Below are positions 1 to 19,390 of a DNA stretch of 64,000 nt, piece after piece (within the stretch, counting starts at the first letter, position 1; each line of letters opens with the position of its first letter). The position numbers were made by a program, and so were the translations under genes. The notes under the pieces are model-generated. The model saw only the letters and a list, made by a program, of their open reading frames with translations, ran no database searches and was not told the DNA's origin. Source of the DNA: an uncultured Gammaproteobacteria bacterium (lineage in GTDB: Bacteria > Patescibacteriota > Patescibacteriia > CAIXNZ01); contig CAZPVP010000004.1 in NCBI GenBank assembly GCA_964590345.1, forward strand, positions 42 through 64,041, written 5' to 3'.

Positions 1-500
<500 letters not shown>

Positions 501-570
501 AAAAAAACATTATACATTTATAAGCTAGTCATTAGATACGGGTTGCTTCAATGAATTTGGAGCAACCAAA

Positions 571-677
571 TCTGGTGATTTTAGCGAAGGGGAAACACCT
601 GTTCCCATTTCGAACACAGCAGTTAAGCCCTTCAGCGCTGATGATAGTCCGCATGGGCGAAAGTAAGTCATTGCCAG
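571..677 (+). rRNA. rrf: 5S rRNA
   Basis: Conserved 5S core CCTGTTCCCATTTCGAACACAGCAGTTAAGCCC...GCGCTGATGATAGT; helix I pairing between the 5' CTGGTGA and the 3' TCATTGCCAG; an upstream processing hairpin lies at 541-567. Confidence 0.8.
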
Positions 678-683
678 TTTAAC

Positions 684-716
684 AAAAAACAATCCTTTTA
701 AGGATTGTTTTTTGTT
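684..716 (+). terminator. Rho-independent terminator after 5S rRNA
   Basis: Hairpin ACAATCCTT-TTAA-AAGGATTGT followed by a T-run. Confidence 0.7.
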
Positions 717-1288
717 ATCCGCCGAAGCCCTGTCTGCCGGCAGGCAGGTTTAGCGAAGGCGGATTAACTAAATTCGACAAAATATTTTATATAATATAAG
801 ATGATAATCAAGCTCCTTAGTATGAATACAGAATAGATACTACCGGTCTAACCATGGCGCGCGGGGATCTAGTTTCTAATGGGAGAACTTAAAAATGCAT
901 GGGAACGAATAGTGTCTGATTTTTCTAGAAATATTGTTGGAGGAAAGATAATTTAGAAAAGATGAAAAAGACGTCGATTCTTAACCAATGCGGTTCAAGG
1001 ATTATTGGAGATGTATTCAACTGAGGAGTTTTTATTTGATTCTTCTTTTTGTAACCAAAAAGAAACAAAAAGTTTTGGGGTGGCTCAATGCACTATCACG
1101 TTGATTGGTGATAGGTGGTGTTGATGTCGGCGCTTAGTCGCCACCCCAAACCCCTTGGTGCTATTAAAATGATCGAAGCTTTAAAATTAATTTAAAAAAT
1201 GTTAAACTGGAACTTAGTAGAAAGTTAGAAAGTAAAAAATTAAAAGAGCACTTTCAAACTTTTTTACTTTAAACTTTTAACTTATTTT

Positions 1289-2536
1289 ATGAGACAAATC
1301 GCAGACTTACATATTCACTCAAAATATTCCCGAGCATGTTCAAAGGAACTGACTTTACCCAATATTGACAAATGGTGTTCATATAAAGGTATTGATCTTG
1401 TGGCAACCGGTGATTTTACTCATCCGGTTTGGTTTGCTGATATAAAAAAATTACTTAAATCATTAGACAATGGTTTGTTTGAATTAAAAGAAGATTCTAA
1501 AGGGACCAAATTCATGCTTGGTACTGAAATCTCCTGTATTTATAAACAAGGCGATAAAACGCGTCGTGTCCATCATAATATTTATTTTCCGGAGATTAAA
1601 GATGTTGAAAAATTTAATTCAATTTTGGAAAAACAGGGACGTAATTTAAAATCAGATGGTCGGCCGATTTTGGGTTTAAGTTCTATTGAGCTGGCTAAAA
1701 TAATTTTTGAAATAAACGAAAAAGCAATTATAATTCCGGCTCACGCTTGGACGCCATGGTTTTCTATATTTGGATCAAAATCAGGATTTGATTCTATTGA
1801 AGAATGTTTTGATAAGTATGCTGATAAAATTTATGCCATTGAAACAGGTCTTTCTTCTGATCCGCCCATGAACTGGCGTTTATCTGTTTTAGATAAGGTA
1901 GTTTTAGTTTCTAATTCCGATGCTCATTCTTTACCCAATTTAGGACGGGAAGCCAATGTGTTTGAATGGGACAATCCGAGTTATGATGAATTTTATAATA
2001 CGTTAAAAAATCAGGATAAATCAAAATTTAAATATACAATTGAATTTTTCCCAGAAGAAGGTAAGTATCATTTTGACGGCCATGCCAGTTGTAATGTTTC
2101 TTTAAAACCCAAAGAAACAAAAAAGAATAAAGGTCTTTGCTCAAAATGTAAAAAGTCTTTAACAGTTGGTGTTTTGCATCGAGTTGATGATTTGGCAGAT
2201 CGCGAAAAAGGAGAATTAGATAAACATATTCCTTATAAAAGTTTAGTGCCTTTGCAGGAAATAATTGCTGAAGCTTTTGCAGTTGGTAAAAATTCAAAAA
2301 GAGTCCAGGATGAATATTTTGCCATGATAGAAAAAGGCAGCAGCGAATTTGAAATCTTGTTGGACAAAAGTTTGGTTGAATTAAAAAAAATTACGCAGCC
2401 GGAAATTGTGGAGGCGGTTAAGCGAGTTCGGGAAGGCAAATTAAATATTGAACCCGGTTATGATGGTGTTTATGGTAAGATTCAGATTTATAAAGATAAT
2501 GAGGAGCGAGGCGCAGTGCAAAAAAGTTTAATCTAA
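1289..2536 (+). CDS. Endonuclease Q (EndoQ) homolog, PHP domain plus Zn-finger
   Basis: N-terminal DLHIHSKYSRA PHP motif; GDxxHP, RVHHxxxFP, GRPxLxLS, IIPAHAWTPW and a CSKCKKS zinc-ribbon, with collinear similarity to Pyrococcus/Bacillus EndoQ. Confidence 0.7.
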   Translation: MRQIADLHIHSKYSRACSKELTLPNIDKWCSYKGIDLVATGDFTHPVWFADIKKLLKSLDNGLFELKEDSKGTKFMLGTEISCIYKQGDKTRRVHHNIYFPEIKDVEKFNSILEKQGRNLKSDGRPILGLSSIELAKIIFEINEKAIIIPAHAWTPWFSIFGSKSGFDSIEECFDKYADKIYAIETGLSSDPPMNWRLSVLDKVVLVSNSDAHSLPNLGREANVFEWDNPSYDEFYNTLKNQDKSKFKYTIEFFPEEGKYHFDGHASCNVSLKPKETKKNKGLCSKCKKSLTVGVLHRVDDLADREKGELDKHIPYKSLVPLQEIIAEAFAVGKNSKRVQDEYFAMIEKGSSEFEILLDKSLVELKKITQPEIVEAVKRVREGKLNIEPGYDGVYGKIQIYKDNEERGAVQKSLI

Positions 2537-4054: not shown

Positions 4055-5248
4055 ATGAATAAAACAAAATTATTAACAAAAATAGAAACACCTATCCCAT
4101 CCAAATCTTTTCTTAATGGGACAGATTTATCATTTGCTAATGTTAGAGAGTATGAAAGAACAAAACATGTTCATCGCTTGCATCCTTATCTTGGTAAGTT
4201 TATTCCGCAACTAGTAGAAGTTTTTCTAAAGAGTTATTTTAAGAAAGGAGATTTTATTCTTGATCCATTTATGGGTTCGGGGACAACATTAATTGAAGCA
4301 AATATTTTAGGTATGCATTCAGCTGGTATAGAAATTTCACTTTTTAATTGTTTAATAGCGGAAACAAAAATAAAAGAATACGATATATTATTTGTTGAAG
4401 AAGAAATAAAAGATATCCTTCAAAAGACAAAGGAATTTAGTAAATGTCTTGTTAAAGGGCAAAGGCAATTAACTTTATTAAAAAATAATTTTAAAAAATA
4501 TAAAACTAATAGTGAATATCTAAACACTTGGCTTGCTGATAGATCCTTGCAAGAAATTTTATTCTATAGAGAACAAATTAAAAATTATCAAAATCAAAAT
4601 ATACTTAAAATTATTCTGAGTCGCGCAACACGAAGTGCTCGCTTAATTCCGCATTACGATTTAGCTAGGCCTAAAAAACCGATAAGAGAAAAATATTATT
4701 GTATAAAGCACAGAAGAATATGTGAACCGGTCAATGAGGCACTCAAATTTATTAATCGTTATAGTTGGGATACAATAAAAAGAATAAAAGAATTTGATAA
4801 TTTACGAACTAAAGCAAAGATTGATATTATTCAAGGCGATTCAAGAAAGGTTAGTCTTGACAAATTAAATAAATTTGATGGTATTTTTACTTCACCACCA
4901 TATGTTGGTTTAATTGATTATCACGATCAACATAGATATGCATATGACCTTTTTGGTTTAGATGATAATGGTTTTAATGAAATTGGGCCGGCGTCAAAAG
5001 GGAAAAGTCGAGAAGCAAAAGAAGAATACAAAAATAATATAATTGCTGTTTTTAAAAATATAAATAAATATTTAAAACCGAAAGCAAAAATATTTGTAGT
5101 AGTTAATGATAAAGATGATCTTTATTCAGGAGTTGCTGATGCTTGTGGTTATAGTATTGAGAAAATTTTTTATCGCCCTGTTTTGATGAGAACAGAAAGG
5201 GATAATGCTAAATTTTCAGAAAGTATTTATTATTTTATAAAAAAATAA
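4055..5248 (+). CDS. DNA methyltransferase (amino-MTase, N4-cytosine or N6-adenine); motif I DPFMGSGTT, motif IV SPPY
   Basis: HPYLGKF...DPFMGSGTTLIEA (AdoMet-binding motif I) near the N-terminus and FTSPPY (catalytic motif IV) near residue 277. A REase gene starts 2 nt downstream. Confidence 0.7.
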   Translation: MNKTKLLTKIETPIPSKSFLNGTDLSFANVREYERTKHVHRLHPYLGKFIPQLVEVFLKSYFKKGDFILDPFMGSGTTLIEANILGMHSAGIEISLFNCLIAETKIKEYDILFVEEEIKDILQKTKEFSKCLVKGQRQLTLLKNNFKKYKTNSEYLNTWLADRSLQEILFYREQIKNYQNQNILKIILSRATRSARLIPHYDLARPKKPIREKYYCIKHRRICEPVNEALKFINRYSWDTIKRIKEFDNLRTKAKIDIIQGDSRKVSLDKLNKFDGIFTSPPYVGLIDYHDQHRYAYDLFGLDDNGFNEIGPASKGKSREAKEEYKNNIIAVFKNINKYLKPKAKIFVVVNDKDDLYSGVADACGYSIEKIFYRPVLMRTERDNAKFSESIYYFIKK

Positions 5249-5249
5249 T

Positions 5250-6032
5250 ATGGGTCTAACAAAAAAACAAAAAGAAGAAATTAATAATTATTTAGTTTTA
5301 AAAATAAGAGAAAAACTCGCTAATTATAAGCCGGAAACAAGTTCGATGCCTTTTCAAGTTAGGTTACTTGGAAAGGACAAAATGGCTTTGTTTTCGTTTA
5401 TTCACTCTGTAAATACTACTCTCGGAACTTCAATTTTTGAAAAGGTAGGGCAGATTATTGCGAAACCACTAGTTAAAGAGGCAAAGGATAGATATGATTT
5501 TGAGGGTTTTATTAGTGGCGGAGCTGTATTAAAGATTGATTCAATAATGCGTAGTTTACGTTCTGCAGAGAGAAGTCCAAACAAAAAGTTGGAAATAAAA
5601 GAAGTTTTAGAAGTTTCGCAGAAGGGCACAATGGGCAAAAGACTTAAAAAGCGTGTTGATCTTTTTATAATTGATAAAGATAATACAGAAAATTATTTCG
5701 AAATTAAAACTGCGAAACCCAATATCAATGAATTTACGGGGATTAAAAAACAACTTTTAGACTGGATAGCAATGCGCGGGAGTATTGATCCTAAGGTTAA
5801 AATAAAAACAATAGTGGCAATACCTTATAATCCTTATGCCCCTCAACCATATGAACGATGGACATTACAAGGTTTATTTGATTTAGAAAAAGAGGTTTTA
5901 GTAGGTGATGAATTTTGGGATATGCTGGGAGGGAAGGGAACTTATAAAAATTTGCTAAAAGTATTTGAGGAAGCGGGTTTAGAATTGCGAGATGAAATAG
6001 AACAAAAAATGAAAAGTGTTGGGGAAAAATGA
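5250..6032 (+). CDS. Putative type II restriction endonuclease (PD-(D/E)xK), possibly TdeIII-like
   Basis: Translationally coupled to the MTase; candidate catalytic motif VDLFIID...ENYFEIKTAK (D...ExK). Family assignment comes from recollection, not from a search. Confidence 0.45.
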   Translation: MGLTKKQKEEINNYLVLKIREKLANYKPETSSMPFQVRLLGKDKMALFSFIHSVNTTLGTSIFEKVGQIIAKPLVKEAKDRYDFEGFISGGAVLKIDSIMRSLRSAERSPNKKLEIKEVLEVSQKGTMGKRLKKRVDLFIIDKDNTENYFEIKTAKPNINEFTGIKKQLLDWIAMRGSIDPKVKIKTIVAIPYNPYAPQPYERWTLQGLFDLEKEVLVGDEFWDMLGGKGTYKNLLKVFEEAGLELRDEIEQKMKSVGEK

Positions 6033-14624: not shown

Positions 14625-15401
14625 ATGAAAAAGAAAGTCGTCATTAGCCAGTCGACAGTGTCGGCCGGGCAACTCAAAGATCTGTTCCGCATGATTGATG
14701 ACGGAACGATCGGCAACGAAGAAATGGGTGCGTTTTTAGCCAGTCCGCGAAAGTTTTCCCAAGGCGGACTAACCACTATCCGGGCCATTAATATACTTGG
14801 CCAAGGCAAAGTCATCACGAACGAACAAGCAGCCAAAGCCTGGAGTGAGGGCGCGGTAAAAAGCGTGGCCATCCGCTACAGCGAAACAACTCTGCGCATA
14901 TGTGCGGAGCAGAACCAAAGCGGCCAGGCGGATTGGCGCTTGGTTTACTGCCACGGGTTTTCTCTGCGCGAACAGCGCGACAAGCGGAGAACAGACCAGA
15001 GCAACCAGCCGTGTTTTTACGGCAATGACTGGTGGCTCAACTCCGTTGAAGACAAGTGGGCGACATACAAACCTCAAGCCGGCTACTATCTCATCAATTT
15101 TTGTGGCCAGTTTGCTAACATGAACTGGAAAACGCAGGAAGCAGAGATCGCCAAACTCGGCAAGGACTATGAACGTTGCCATGAGGCAGTTTTCAGCGAA
15201 GCCATTTTGACCATTTACATGGTTAACAATGGCGAGCGAATTGCCGAGAACTGGTGGCACTGGGGCGTTTCGCTGGCTTCCAATGGCTTCCGAGTCTTTG
15301 TCGGCTATCTCAATTCTAATGGTCTCGATGTCTACTACCACTGGCTTGACTACTCCCTTCACGTCCTGCGCGTCTGCGTTTTTCGGAAGTTTGAAAATTG
15401 A
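14625..15401 (+). CDS. DGR variable (target) protein with the VR at its C-terminus; GC-rich (about 52%); no signal peptide
   Basis: The 3' 121 nt form the VR matching the TR at 15781-15901. The C-terminal WWHWG...LRVCVFR resembles the C-type-lectin/FGE-like fold ends of DGR targets. Confidence 0.75.
   Translation: MKKKVVISQSTVSAGQLKDLFRMIDDGTIGNEEMGAFLASPRKFSQGGLTTIRAINILGQGKVITNEQAAKAWSEGAVKSVAIRYSETTLRICAEQNQSGQADWRLVYCHGFSLREQRDKRRTDQSNQPCFYGNDWWLNSVEDKWATYKPQAGYYLINFCGQFANMNWKTQEAEIAKLGKDYERCHEAVFSEAILTIYMVNNGERIAENWWHWGVSLASNGFRVFVGYLNSNGLDVYYHWLDYSLHVLRVCVFRKFEN
15268..15388 (+). repeat. DGR variable repeat (VR)
   Basis: 121-nt alignment with the TR; 19 mismatches, 18 of them opposite TR adenines; 3' 27 nt (CCTGCGCGTCTGCGTTTTTCGGAA) identical (IMH-like). 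Confidence 0.85.
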
Positions 15402-15449
15402 CCATTGAACTCTTGACCTTTTTGAATTTTTAAACTTTGAATCTTTGTC

Positions 15450-15492
15450 CCTGTTAGATGAAAAATATCTGGCGGGGACTTTTTTATTTTAG
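15450..15492 (+). terminator. GC-stem hairpin plus T-run downstream of the VR (terminator or DGR target-recognition hairpin)
   Basis: GTCCC...(26 nt)...GGGAC followed by TTTTTTATTTT. Confidence 0.4.
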
Positions 15493-15780
15493 CAATTTGA
15501 GTTATAATAAAGCTGGACTGCTTGGCTAATGCAGGTTGGGTTACGGCTTAATCTCGCCAAGCCCCTATCTTTAGGGATTGCCAGAGTATCGTATCTTTAC
15601 GGAGTGCGATAGAGTGCAATTAAGGATAGAAAAAGAACTTCTTGCCCGGTTCTGGCGGAGGCATTTTAAATTAATTTTTAGGATTTGCTCTCAAATAAAA
15701 TACAGAAAGAAGAAAATATAAATCACTTAGAGTGATAGTAAATTTCAACTTTCAGTGATCAATGATGGAACTGGGCAAAT

Positions 15781-15901
15781 TTTCGCTGGCTTCCAATGGC
15801 AACCGAGTCAATGTCGGCAATCTCAATACTAATGGTCTCAATGTCAACAATAACTGGAATGACAACTCCAATCAAAACCTGCGCGTCTGCGTTTTTCGGA
15901 A
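15781..15901 (+). repeat. DGR template repeat (TR)
   Basis: Same frame as the VR but with 13 AAC/AAT (Asn) codons where the VR encodes F, Y, H, L, D or V; noncoding context between the target gene and avd. Confidence 0.85.
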
Positions 15902-15919
15902 CTTCTTTTTCTCGCCAGT

Positions 15920-16303
15920 CTAAATACCTTCGCCGTTTGCGGAGGTGTTTTCTTTGAGATTTTTAACAGACTTAATCCAGCCGCCCAGCATTCTGCCAAT
16001 TTCATCAATGATCATTTGCAGATTGACATACTTTTTGTTATCAATGGTCTTGACCTCTTTTGCCACCCTTAAAAAAACTCTTAATATGTTTAGTTGGCGA
16101 CTTAACTTTTCCATTTCTAGGAGTTTTTGTCTTTTGGGTAATTGCGCGGCTAAAAGCAGGCAATCAAGCATATCAATTACTGAATTTTCACACTTTTGCC
16201 AGAGGGTAAAGCGATCTTGCTTGGGAATTGATCTGCGGTAAAGATGCAAGACTTTATAAAGATCCACGATTTTTTGATAAATTGGCGCTTCTAAGATTTC
16301 CAT
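15920..16303 (-). CDS. avd: DGR accessory variability determinant (Avd), four-helix-bundle protein
   Basis: 127 aa; C-terminal EIGRMLGGWIKSV matches the bAvd EVGRILGSWIARV motif; TIGR02436 / 23S-rRNA-IVS-protein-like helices. Confidence 0.7.
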   Translation of the reverse strand: MEILEAPIYQKIVDLYKVLHLYRRSIPKQDRFTLWQKCENSVIDMLDCLLLAAQLPKRQKLLEMEKLSRQLNILRVFLRVAKEVKTIDNKKYVNLQMIIDEIGRMLGGWIKSVKNLKENTSANGEGI

Positions 16304-17386
16304 ATGAAGGTTTATTATGACTTATTTAATAAAATAATTTCCTTAGAAAATCTTTTTTCTGCCTGGGAGGAATTCAAGAAAGATAAAAGAAAAAAGAAAG
16401 ATGTTTTGTTTTTTGAGTGGAATTTGGAGCGTAACATTTTTAAACTGCGTGAGGAATTAGCATTAAAAATTTATAAGCATAGCCCTTATAGTTCATTTTA
16501 CATTAATGATCCCAAACAAAGGCATATTTACAAAGCAGAAGTCAGGGATAGAGTTTTGCATCATGCAATTTTTTCTGTTCTAAATCCGGTTTTTGAAGCA
16601 ACTTTTATCCCGAATTCCTTCTCTTGCCGTATTGGTAGGGGTACGCATAAAGGAGTGGAAGCTTTAGCTAAAATACTGTGCCAAGTCAGCGGCAACGGAC
16701 ATAATCCATGCTTTGCCCTGAAATGCGATATTAAAAAGTTTTTTGATACAGTGAATCATAAAATTTTACTGGAAATCATTGACCGTAAAATTAAAGACAA
16801 TAATGCAATTTGGCTGTTAAAAGAAATTATTGAAAGCTATTACACTAATTATTCCACTTTATTCAATAAGCGTGGTATTCCTATTGGTAATTTGACCTCT
16901 CAACTATTTGCCAATCTTTACCTTAACGAGCTTGACCAATATGTGAAGCACGATTTAAAAGTAAAATTTTATGTCCGCTACACTGATGATTTTGTCATAG
17001 TTGCGGACCACGAATCTTATTTGAAGAATATAATTTTGTTGATTAAAAAATTTTTAAATGATAACCTTGATTTAAATTTACATCCGAATAAAATAAGCAT
17101 CCGCAAATTTTCGCAGGGCATTGATTTTTTAGGCTATATTTTAAGACCGCATCACCGGCTGATCAGAACTAAAACAAAAAAGCGAATTTTCAAGAAAATC
17201 CGTTTGAGAATTATGGAATACAGAAGGGGAATAGTCAGAGAAGAAAAATTAGAACAATCATTACATTCTTATCTTGGAGTGCTCTCGCATGCTACCGCTC
17301 ATAATTTAAGCGAAAGATTAAAAAATGAATTTTTTTTATTCCTCTTGAACCAAACCTTTGCCTTTGGCCAGAGGATCATTATCTAA
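16304..17386 (+). CDS. DGR reverse transcriptase
   Basis: RT motifs 1-7 present. Motif 4 reads GIPIGNLTSQLFANLYLNELD, the DGR-specific IGxxxSQ in place of the QGxxxSP of group II intron RTs. Motif 5 is YVRYTDDFVIV; motif 3 is KCDIKKFFDTVNH. Confidence 0.85.
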   Translation: MKVYYDLFNKIISLENLFSAWEEFKKDKRKKKDVLFFEWNLERNIFKLREELALKIYKHSPYSSFYINDPKQRHIYKAEVRDRVLHHAIFSVLNPVFEATFIPNSFSCRIGRGTHKGVEALAKILCQVSGNGHNPCFALKCDIKKFFDTVNHKILLEIIDRKIKDNNAIWLLKEIIESYYTNYSTLFNKRGIPIGNLTSQLFANLYLNELDQYVKHDLKVKFYVRYTDDFVIVADHESYLKNIILLIKKFLNDNLDLNLHPNKISIRKFSQGIDFLGYILRPHHRLIRTKTKKRIFKKIRLRIMEYRRGIVREEKLEQSLHSYLGVLSHATAHNLSERLKNEFFLFLLNQTFAFGQRIII

Positions 17387-19390
17387 GTTTGTAGTAATTC
17401 CCTGATAAGTTTTAAAAATTCGTCCCTGTGTCTGGGAATCTGTTGCTTCAATATCGATTTTTGGCAGCAAAGTTAAAATTTTATCAGCATCATTTTGACT
17501 CGGTGTTATTGAAATTTCAAATTCAGCCGTTGATTCATTTATAGCGGTTGGAATACGTGAAATTTGCCAGACAACTTCATTATTCTGATTTTTGTATAAA
17601 TTGCCAGCAGAAGTGTTTTCTTGGTTTTCAAAGCTAACATAATCTGGCAGCTTTGCTTTAACTTCAATATTTTCAATATCATGCAAAGAATTAGTAATGG
17701 TCCAGAAAATTTTATAAGAAGTTTTTTGACCGACAATAGGAGGCAATGGCCCGGAGCCGATTGTTTGATTGTTTTCATCAAAATAGCGCCCTTCTGTTTT
17801 TAAATTCAAGTTAGTGTTAATTTCATTAATAATAATATTGCTTTCATTGACGACTTCAGCTTGTTTATTGTCAATTTTGTTAATTTGTGTTTCAAAAAAG
17901 CTTCTAACCTGATAGTCTTCTTCTTTATATTTTTTTTGATAATCTTTTAGTTTAATTTGGATATTAATTTCTATTTCATCTTCGGGAAATAAAACAGCTA
18001 ATTCAGGCGTTTGCTCTTTGGTCCACAAAATTTGGTGACCTTCATTGATGCCATTACCGTCATCTTTTAAAGTTGACCAATTTAAAAATGGCGAATCAGA
18101 AATTAATCTTACTTTTAAATCACCCAAAGTGTTTTTGCTTTTATTTTGAATGCTTAACAAATAATTCAATGTCCCCCCAAAATTAACTGGTTTATTTTGA
18201 TTAGAGCCTTGAATAATTAAATTGTTTAAAAGTTCACCCTTGATAACTTCAATTGTAAATTTTTTTTCGCCTTGAATAAAATATTCATCAGCCGGGCCTT
18301 TTAATTTAACTTTAATATTAAATTCTAAAGTTTGGCTTTCTTCAACTTGAAATTCGCCTTGGAAATTAATATCTTTTTCGGCTTGCGCAGCCAAATTATC
18401 AATTGCCCAGATTTTGGGCGCGTTTTTTTCTTCATCGTCTATACTTTTTTTTTCTTCTTCATTAGCAATAATTTTACTTTGATTAAGTGTAAATTGCGCT
18501 GGATAATTTAATTCCACCTGAAGATTGTTTAAATCAATATCCTGAGAATTGTTTTTTAATTTTATATTAAATTCAGCTTTTTCTTGGTTGGCGACTTGAT
18601 TCGGATATTCAATCTCAAAATCAACCAAGCTATCGGTAATTTCAGTATTAAAAGAAACAGTTTTTTGAAATTCCGAGCTAAAATTAACCGGTATATAACT
18701 CAATGTGGCAGAAATTTGCTGTTTTGTATTTTGGCTGCCGATTAATTTTCCGGTTATTTCTAAAGTGCCTGATTCACCGCCGGAAATATTATTAAGTTGC
18801 CATTTTTTTATATTAGAATAGCCTTTTTCATCGTTTGTATCGGCAGCAGGTTTTTTATTGGAAGATTCAAAAATAAAACCGTAAGGCAAATAAACAAATA
18901 ATTTTGCCTGGCTAAAAGCTGTGTCTTCTGCATTAGCATATTTAATTTGATAAGTTACTTTTTCACCAGAAACAGCATTAAAAGGAGCTTTTATTTCTAA
19001 ATTAATTTTTTCGCCAGTGAACTTTGCTTTGGGCTGAAAAACTAAAAAGCCGAGGAAGGAAACAGTAAAAATGATAACCAAAATAATAATAATTAAAATA
19101 ACAAGATTAAAAATATTGTTTCTCTTTTTAAATTCTATGTTAGCCATGTTAGGCATCTTGCCTTTGCCGTCTTGATAGATGCTTTTTAGTCCTTTTTCAA
19201 TTTCTTTAGATTTAGAAACTATTTTGGGCTTTTGTTTTTTTTCTGCTTTGCCCCGGGTTTTAAGAGATTTTGTCTTTTTTTTTCTAATAGGTTTTTTAGC
19301 TTTTTTTGTTTTAGCTAAAGGCTGATCAGTTTGAGCCTGTTTTTTGTTTTTTTGCTTTATTTTTTTGTTTTTTTTCTTTTTTGTAGACAT
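17336..19390 (-). CDS. Membrane-anchored surface protein: Lys-rich N-terminal tail, one TM, repeated beta-rich extracellular domains
   Basis: K-rich residues 1-60, TM IFNLVILIIIILVIIFTVSFLGFLVF, then repeated DUF11/CARDB-like segments. Confidence 0.5.
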   Translation of the reverse strand: MSTKKKKNKKIKQKNKKQAQTDQPLAKTKKAKKPIRKKKTKSLKTRGKAEKKQKPKIVSKSKEIEKGLKSIYQDGKGKMPNMANIEFKKRNNIFNLVILIIIILVIIFTVSFLGFLVFQPKAKFTGEKINLEIKAPFNAVSGEKVTYQIKYANAEDTAFSQAKLFVYLPYGFIFESSNKKPAADTNDEKGYSNIKKWQLNNISGGESGTLEITGKLIGSQNTKQQISATLSYIPVNFSSEFQKTVSFNTEITDSLVDFEIEYPNQVANQEKAEFNIKLKNNSQDIDLNNLQVELNYPAQFTLNQSKIIANEEEKKSIDDEEKNAPKIWAIDNLAAQAEKDINFQGEFQVEESQTLEFNIKVKLKGPADEYFIQGEKKFTIEVIKGELLNNLIIQGSNQNKPVNFGGTLNYLLSIQNKSKNTLGDLKVRLISDSPFLNWSTLKDDGNGINEGHQILWTKEQTPELAVLFPEDEIEINIQIKLKDYQKKYKEEDYQVRSFFETQINKIDNKQAEVVNESNIIINEINTNLNLKTEGRYFDENNQTIGSGPLPPIVGQKTSYKIFWTITNSLHDIENIEVKAKLPDYVSFENQENTSAGNLYKNQNNEVVWQISRIPTAINESTAEFEISITPSQNDADKILTLLPKIDIEATDSQTQGRIFKTYQGITTNLDNDPLAKGKGLVQEE

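Follow-up and report, generated by a model that had tools for sequence, protein, structure and literature searches.

In the diversity-generating retroelement (DGR) of the 64,000-nucleotide (nt) stretch of contig CAZPVP010000004.1 analysed here (the window), the accessory gene avd lies on the strand opposite the template repeat (TR) and the reverse transcriptase (RT) gene, and it fills nearly all of the DNA between them. This layout raises the question of where the TR-containing RNA starts and ends, and how avd and RT are expressed. The first-pass annotation of the window took the layout to be unusual and reasoned that the TR RNA must start in the non-coding region 15401-15780 and run antisense through the whole of avd before reaching RT, or that avd and RT are driven from intragenic divergent promoters. 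Our best explanation is that the locus is a DGR of the B3 type of candidate phyla radiation (CPR) bacteria, in which the TR probably lies in a self-contained, structured non-coding RNA (ncRNA) that ends before avd. The proposed ncRNA would be ∼440 nt long, running from ∼15515 to ∼15955 and ending at the 3′ end of avd. We regard it as self-contained because a −10 box and a covarying 5′ leader precede the TR, a helix (P3) closes around it, a hairpin with a T-rich tail follows it, and avd shows no sign of an overlapping constraint. An antisense avd by itself would be the rediscovery of a catalogued architecture and changes nothing alone; the less described feature is a TR within its own small structured RNA gene, which apparently ends before avd.

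All positions are those of the window, and + denotes its forward strand. The complete DGR spans 14625-17386 and consists of a target gene with the variable repeat (VR), the TR, avd on the opposite strand, and RT:

14625-15401, + strand: DGR target gene of 258 amino acids (aa), an open reading frame (ORF) with the VR at its C-terminus
15268-15391, + strand: VR, 124 nt at the 3′ end of the target gene
15781-15904, + strand: TR, a 124-nt repeat matching the VR
15920-16303, − strand: avd, 127 aa, identified by ORF, hidden Markov model (HMM) and fold matches
16304-17386, + strand: DGR RT, 360 aa, identified by its RVT_1 match

Identity and conservation of the DGR

The assignment of this locus as a DGR was borne out, in that a TR/VR pair with adenine-directed differences, a DGR-type RT and Avd are all present. 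TR and VR are 84% identical over 124 nt, and 18 of their 20 mismatches fall at TR adenines. The RT matches RVT_1 (E = 1e-24), and its translation contains the motifs IGNLTSQ ([ILV]GxxxSQ) and YTDD (YxDD), which we take to be DGR hallmarks. The final ∼10-15 RT residues lie outside the stretch aligned in homologues. The 258-aa target protein had no match in Pfam or NCBIfam.

The minus-strand ORF is Avd, as the first-pass annotation had proposed; this is supported by above-threshold scores for two curated HMMs and by the fold search. Its product matches Pfam bAvd (PF22296) with E = 1.3e-17 and 64.7 bits (cut-off 40), and the NCBIfam equivalog DivGenRetAVD with 82.4 bits (cut-off 80). An AlphaFold2 (AF2) model of the protein (predicted local distance difference test score, pLDDT, 86.6) was compared by Foldseek with Avd of Bordetella phage BPP-1 (4DWL/8UB7), giving template modelling (TM) scores of 0.73-0.87 and root-mean-square deviations of 1.7-2.0 Å. 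In a phmmer search against PDB sequences the best hit was also 4DWL, at E = 0.068. The identity of Avd is therefore settled by the fold search, which matched where phmmer gave this weak E value.

The coordinates hold: avd is antisense to TR and RT, and the two start codons stand back to back (...ttccat/atgaag..., the slash marking the junction), with the avd ATG at 16303-16301 (−), the RT ATG from 16304 (+) and 0 nt between them. For both proteins, homologues align starting at residue 1 in more than 20 loci. The TR does end close to the avd stop codon (15920-15922), at a distance of 15-18 nt and not the 19 nt first given, since strict TR/VR homology stops at A15901. The Avd of the window and of one relative (L002) has 127 aa, compared with the usual 115-117 aa, because of 11 extra codons through which the ORF reads into and across the hairpin that follows the TR. 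It is for this reason that the TR appears so near to the avd stop in the window. In the closest relative (L001, 3660-4000), avd is broken by a frameshift, so that tblastn aligns it in two segments, and there is an ORF of 60 aa.

Relatives were collected in a scan of one genome per species, which gave 528 RT relatives, and the best 80 loci (L001-L080; RT identity 45-83%) were analysed. These 80 are mostly labelled as CPR/Patescibacteria metagenome-assembled genomes (MAGs), with Uhrbacteria L001 at 83% RT identity; the others read ‘bacterium’ or, for a small number, Gammaproteobacteria, Bacteroidota or archaeon. The placement of the window itself in the CPR is taken from these labels. In 71 of the 80, across independent MAG assemblies, RT is immediately preceded by a minus-strand avd homologue. 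Every TR found (∼58 loci) is on the RT strand, just past the 3′ end of avd, and the closer relatives have −2 to +13 nt between the start codons of avd and RT. The comparison with related genomes thus confirmed that the inversion is conserved.

The main text of Wu et al. 2018 (NAR 46:11, PMC5758913) describes architecture B3 as ‘TR-(avd)-RT’, the parentheses denoting the reverse strand, reports it in 90% of their CPR DGRs, and states that parts encoded on opposite strands call for two or more transcription units. Against that description, the order and orientation of TR, reverse avd and RT in the window are identical, without any other accessory gene, the hosts are CPR/Patescibacteria, the target gene is upstream with a C-terminal VR, and no difference in gene layout was seen. 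The layout is an ordinary chromosomal CPR-type one, already catalogued and lineage-wide; it is not new. Far from unusual, it is the normal arrangement of the lineage, both by the 90% figure in that main text (PMC5758913) and by the 71 of 80 homologous loci.

That the arrangement is an artefact, with the avd segment inverted in assembly or a minus-strand ORF that arose by chance and is not Avd, has a negligible probability. An assembly inversion is excluded because the same order and orientation recurs in the 71 independently assembled loci, while the chance ORF is countered by the HMM and fold matches of Avd, and the main text of PMC5758913 gives the same layout as B3. The contig of one relative (L005, 1-1895) carries a second, distant DGR whose RT is 36% identical and whose parts are co-directional: TR 366-442, avd 500-817 (+) and RT 837-1895 (+). 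Therefore, avd downstream of the TR occurs in both orientations in CPR genomes.

Structured RNA upstream of the template repeat

The spacer between VR and TR is 258-432 nt long in 57 loci and highly conserved, and in the window it holds no ORF of at least 50 aa (15409-15761). The elements found in it and around the TR were:

15447-15489, + strand: intrinsic terminator of the target gene, a 14-bp hairpin (15447-15479) and a T run, from the terminator scan
15503-15508, + strand: −10 box TATAAT (perfect), putative promoter of the TR RNA, from positional conservation
15515-15780, + strand: structured leader RNA 5′ of the TR, ∼260 nt, from RNAalifold and covariation
15521-15561, + strand: leader helix P1, from the covariation model
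15578-15619, + strand: leader helix P2, from the covariation model
15628-15637 (5′ arm) with 15903-15912 (3′ arm, UUCUUUUUCU), + strand: helix P3, an inverted repeat with compensatory changes
15637-15644, + strand: invariant junction ACUUCUUG, from the leader alignment
15642-15654 with 15766-15778, + strand: helix P4, its 3′ arm abutting the TR 5′ end
15657-15691, + strand: leader helix P5, from the covariation model
15694-15704, + strand: invariant single-stranded AAUAAAAUACA, from the leader alignment
15705-15753, + strand: leader helices P6/P7, from the covariation model
15922-15950, + strand: 12-bp hairpin with a T-rich tail to ∼15965, overlapping the last avd codons

A hairpin and T run equivalent to the target-gene terminator is present in the aligned related loci. 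Downstream of it, a −10 box (at least a 5/6 match, often TGnTAnAAT) ends 10-16 nt upstream of the leader start in 35 of 61 loci, compared with 5% of random windows. The TR transcript is therefore predicted to start within 15401-15780, as the first-pass annotation had it, apparently from the TATAAT at 15503-15508, since this box is positionally conserved.

RNAalifold on 19 loci predicted 76 pairs, of which 72 were counted after dropping 4 pairs internal to the TR. Across these loci, 93.7% of cells pair, compared with 75.5% in shuffles and 43-51% in slid controls. Moreover, 58 of the 72 pairs change on both sides, and none of 500 shuffles reached any of the measures. The single-sequence fold of the leader has z = −3.8. 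An nhmmer profile of the leader matches 36 of 81 loci, always on the + strand and directly 5′ of the TR; the second DGR of L005 has no match to it. The leader goes with the TR and not with the VR, as it is present in loci where the VR is downstream of RT on the other strand (L021-L023 and L026).

Helix P3 joins the leader to the far side of the TR. In a global alignment of 61 sequences it was lost by misalignment; a regular-expression anchor found the P3 motifs in 19 loci, and subfamilies were then treated separately. Its arms show compensatory changes, for example GAGAUGGAA:UUCCGUCUC, GGGAUUGAA:UUCAGUCUC and GAGAUAGAA:UUCUAUUUC, and the duplex energy averages −11.8 kcal/mol for cognate arms compared with −7.8 kcal/mol for non-cognate arms. 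The same closing topology, with unrelated sequences and compensatory changes of their own, recurs in two further, more distant subfamilies. In the covariation-based fold the TR is thereby shown as a loop closed by two adjacent helices, P3 and P4, both drawn from the continuous strand 15628-15654. In the window, L001 and L002, a weak TR/VR similarity with a 2-nt indel reaches ∼20 nt upstream of the TR, to ∼15761 and into the 3′ arm of P4; this 5′ extension was not seen in the remaining loci.

The TR edge of P3 coincides with the boundary of TR/VR homology. Here TR and VR differ by a fixed, non-adenine change (GGAA-C-TTC in the TR, C15902; GGAA-G-TTC in the VR, G15389) that is kept in ∼20 close loci, and analogous differences of the IMH/IMH* (initiation of mutagenic homing) type occur at the homology boundary in distant loci. 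C15902 of the TR opposes C15638 of the leader as a C·C mismatch, whereas the VR version would be the full complement of the leader motif ACUUC. The invariant GAA-C-UUC on both strands could extend P3 around the C15638·C15902 mismatch.

Extent of the template RNA and expression of avd and RT

The 90 nt that follow the TR contain a stem of 8 bp or longer in 35 of 44 loci, compared with 15% of random windows, and this hairpin usually sits in the interval from the TR to the avd stop codon. For the window, our own stem scan placed the end of the 3′ arm at GUGUUU, followed by UCUUUGAGAUUUUU. Many of the hairpins are flanked by A-rich sequence on the 5′ side and T-rich sequence on the 3′ side, as is usual for terminators that act in both directions, and those of distant loci have 7-9 T in the next 10 nt. 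The hairpin at 15922-15950 is a candidate terminator that would serve the TR RNA and, in the other direction, avd; a candidate Avd-binding stem-loop; or both. An overlapping constraint antisense in avd was not found, as the normalised third-position entropy is 0.75-0.91 along the gene, codons nearest the TR included. Therefore, no conserved RNA element seems to be hidden antisense in avd. The main text of PMC5758913 does not describe promoters, post-TR hairpins or structured RNA upstream of the TR.

Taken together, the post-TR hairpin, the placement of covarying structure 5′ of the TR and the lack of synonymous constraint in avd disfavour the earlier suggestion of a TR RNA that runs antisense through all of avd into RT. 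Read-through across avd is possible only as a leaky source of RT mRNA. Several points nonetheless weigh against an RNA that stops before avd. Promoter, terminator and both RNA ends are all predictions from sequence. The −35/−10 promoter scan did not call the box at 15503, which has no recognisable −35, and the terminator scan did not call the hairpin at 15922-15950. This hairpin could instead be an Avd-binding stem-loop, in which case the RNA might continue. The invariance of the GAA-C-UUC motifs means that no covariation is possible there. Finally, no convincing conserved RT promoter was found at the avd/RT junction, so that RT mRNA may come from transcription that starts at the TR promoter and reads through.

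These points come together in a rival explanation, in which one long transcript from 15503 comprises leader, TR, antisense avd and RT, serving as both DGR RNA and RT mRNA, and the hairpin acts as an Avd-binding stem-loop or leaky attenuator. Such a transcript would account for an RT gene with no intergenic space in front of it and no conserved promoter found at the junction, and for a hairpin passed over by the terminator scan; moreover, Handa et al. (10.1101/2023.10.23.563531) reported Avd-binding stem-loops just downstream of TRs in many DGRs, CPR included. It is at odds with the T runs (7-9 in 10) and bidirectional-terminator flanks of the hairpins in other loci, with the absence of synonymous-site constraint in avd, and with a covarying structure that lies entirely 5′ of the hairpin, and it would be fully antisense to the avd mRNA. 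On this balance we consider the long transcript unlikely. A second rival would make the leader a separate regulatory element or small RNA (sRNA), for example a riboswitch or an sRNA for the target gene, that is a mere neighbour of the TR and plays no part in reverse transcription. The only Rfam similarity of the leader fits such a view, being a sub-threshold match to RT-16 (RF03019), an RNA motif of unknown function (Weinberg et al. 2017, PMC5737381). However, P3 and P4 use the flanks of the TR itself as pairing partners, with compensatory changes, the leader is confined to positions immediately 5′ of a TR and stays with the TR where the VR lies elsewhere, and the BPP-1 RNA requires just such flanking duplexes (10.1101/2023.10.23.563531). 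An independent element is accordingly very improbable, and we keep to a leader that belongs to the TR RNA.

The resemblance to RT-16 was examined as a possible family membership. RT-16 is the best Rfam match both for the window (15644-15776, 28.9 bits) and for L003 (3297-3481, 24.1 bits, full-length and ending at the TR start), with a gathering threshold of 50. The outer stem (P4) and the AUAAAAUACAG motif are common to RT-16 and the leader, but the scores are far below gathering, which makes RT-16 at most a distant relative. In 14 other loci, and in L013, RT-16 had no match at E ≤ 1, and at the gathering level Rfam gave no DGR-associated family in 17 related loci. We rejected the leader as a member of RT-16, given the sub-threshold scores and its absence from the other loci scanned.

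If the TR RNA ends before avd, the two genes need signals of their own. Since there is no intergenic DNA between them (0 nt), these must lie inside the partner gene. Among the loci compared, no convincing conserved promoter or Shine-Dalgarno motif was found at the avd/RT junction, and promoter scan matches there are at chance level. A TAAGAT 6 nt before the RT ATG was considered as an RT promoter and rejected, as it is found in the window only and is not conserved in relatives. Intragenic divergent promoters, the second option of the first-pass annotation, are thus left by elimination: avd and RT would be transcribed divergently from promoters within each other's first codons or further inside, and would be translated with little or no leader, like most genes of this genome. 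The window has 33.6% GC, a Shine-Dalgarno-like motif precedes 10 of its 43 ORFs of at least 150 aa, and TATAAT lies 6-7 nt before the ATG in several ORFs. The scarcity of Shine-Dalgarno motifs together with TATAAT near start codons suggests that leaderless mRNAs are widespread, and leaderless or near-leaderless avd and RT mRNAs are plausible in such a Shine-Dalgarno-poor genome.

Comparison with BPP-1 and retrons

The biochemistry of DGRs rests almost entirely on BPP-1, in which the accessory RNA (spacer, Sp) follows the template, and a spacer of this kind does not fit into the CPR layout. For cDNA synthesis, BPP-1 depends on 20 nt on the 5′ side of its TR together with a 140-nt downstream spacer (10.1101/2023.10.23.563531). 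One continuous Sp strand forms the template:primer duplex with the TR 3′ end and an adjoining ‘cPRT Stop’ duplex with a segment upstream of the TR, so that the TR loops out; Sp A56 primes, and Sp G57 pairs G·G with the first template base (10.1101/2023.10.23.563531). The survey of TR flanks by Handa et al. covered only 40 nt upstream and 100 nt downstream (10.1101/2023.10.23.563531).

The window shares with BPP-1 an RT with the DGR motif, a pentamer-type four-helix-bundle Avd and adenine-specific TR-to-VR differences. In both, one continuous accessory strand anchors the ends of the TR through two neighbouring duplexes, a homo-mismatch lies beside the TR 3′ duplex (C15638·C15902 here, SpG57·TRG117 in BPP-1), and a stem-loop lies just 3′ of the TR (15922-15950 here). 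The layout does differ, as first noted, from the BPP-1 order avd-TR-Sp-brt (Handa et al. 2018), since avd here lies 3′ of the TR and on the opposite strand. In place of a 140-nt non-coding spacer between TR and RT, with its priming site and protein-binding elements, there are 15-18 nt, after which avd fills the rest. The accessory strand and the other covarying structure are 5′ of the TR here and 3′ in BPP-1, and the segment upstream of the TR pairs with the leader here, whereas in BPP-1 it pairs with sequence downstream of the TR.

By analogy, the leader would do the work of the BPP-1 spacer from a position 5′ of the template. The template:primer duplex would be represented by P3 and the ‘cPRT Stop’ duplex by P4, and cDNA synthesis may be primed from a nucleotide near A15637 and C15638, by 2′-OH cis-priming. 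It counts against these proposals that we infer both the equivalence of P3 and P4 to the BPP-1 elements and the priming nucleotide from topology alone.

In retron msr-msd RNA, an a1/a2 duplex closes the molecule, and the priming guanosine, which acts through its 2′-OH, lies just 3′ of a1. The linear order in the window is the same: the 5′ arm of the closing duplex is followed by candidate priming nucleotides and structured RNA, then by the template, and then by the 3′ arm of the closing duplex. Unlike in retrons, the RT is of another clade, an Avd cofactor and a VR target are present, no msDNA (multicopy single-stranded DNA) is known, and priming is proposed here by analogy.

These comparisons lead us to put forward, tentatively, a permuted DGR RNA in the B3/CPR DGRs. 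The whole accessory RNA (primer strand, stop duplex and equivalents of the protein-binding parts) would lie 5′ of the template in an ncRNA gene running from promoter to terminator, with retron-like priming near the C·C mismatch (∼A15637/C15638). RT-16 would be a relative of the leader, and an 8-nt CTTGA array after the VR would act as a DNA-side homing signal in place of the BPP-1 inverted repeat. In the DGR literature compared, which for Wu et al. was the main text, we found no description of a 5′ accessory RNA, retron-like priming or the CTTGA array. A large fraction of the DGRs known so far belong to CPR bacteria. The leader, closing helix and post-TR hairpin provide a concrete, testable CPR DGR RNA of ∼440 nt (15515-15955), which could allow reconstitution of the class. 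Such work would also reveal if the priming strand can change its place relative to the template from one DGR to another, as the retron-like order suggests.

The array invoked above lies directly 3′ of the VR:

15391-15447, + strand: array of TTGA/CTTG motifs with a period of ∼8 nt

After 65 VRs (L001-L080), CTTG occurs 2.1 times per 60 nt, compared with 0.20 after TRs and 0.23 in random windows, and the TTG-to-TTG spacing in these post-VR arrays peaks at 8 nt. A (C)TTG(A) array follows every VR, including those found on the other strand downstream of RT, and may be a homing signal on the DNA side.

Two further observations concern the DNA downstream of RT. In the window, RT and a convergent 684-aa ORF (17336-19390, −) share 51 nt at their 3′ ends (17336-17386). 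In L007, RT is closely followed by a match to a group I intron at 5154-5399 (−), with 58.5 bits (gathering 50).

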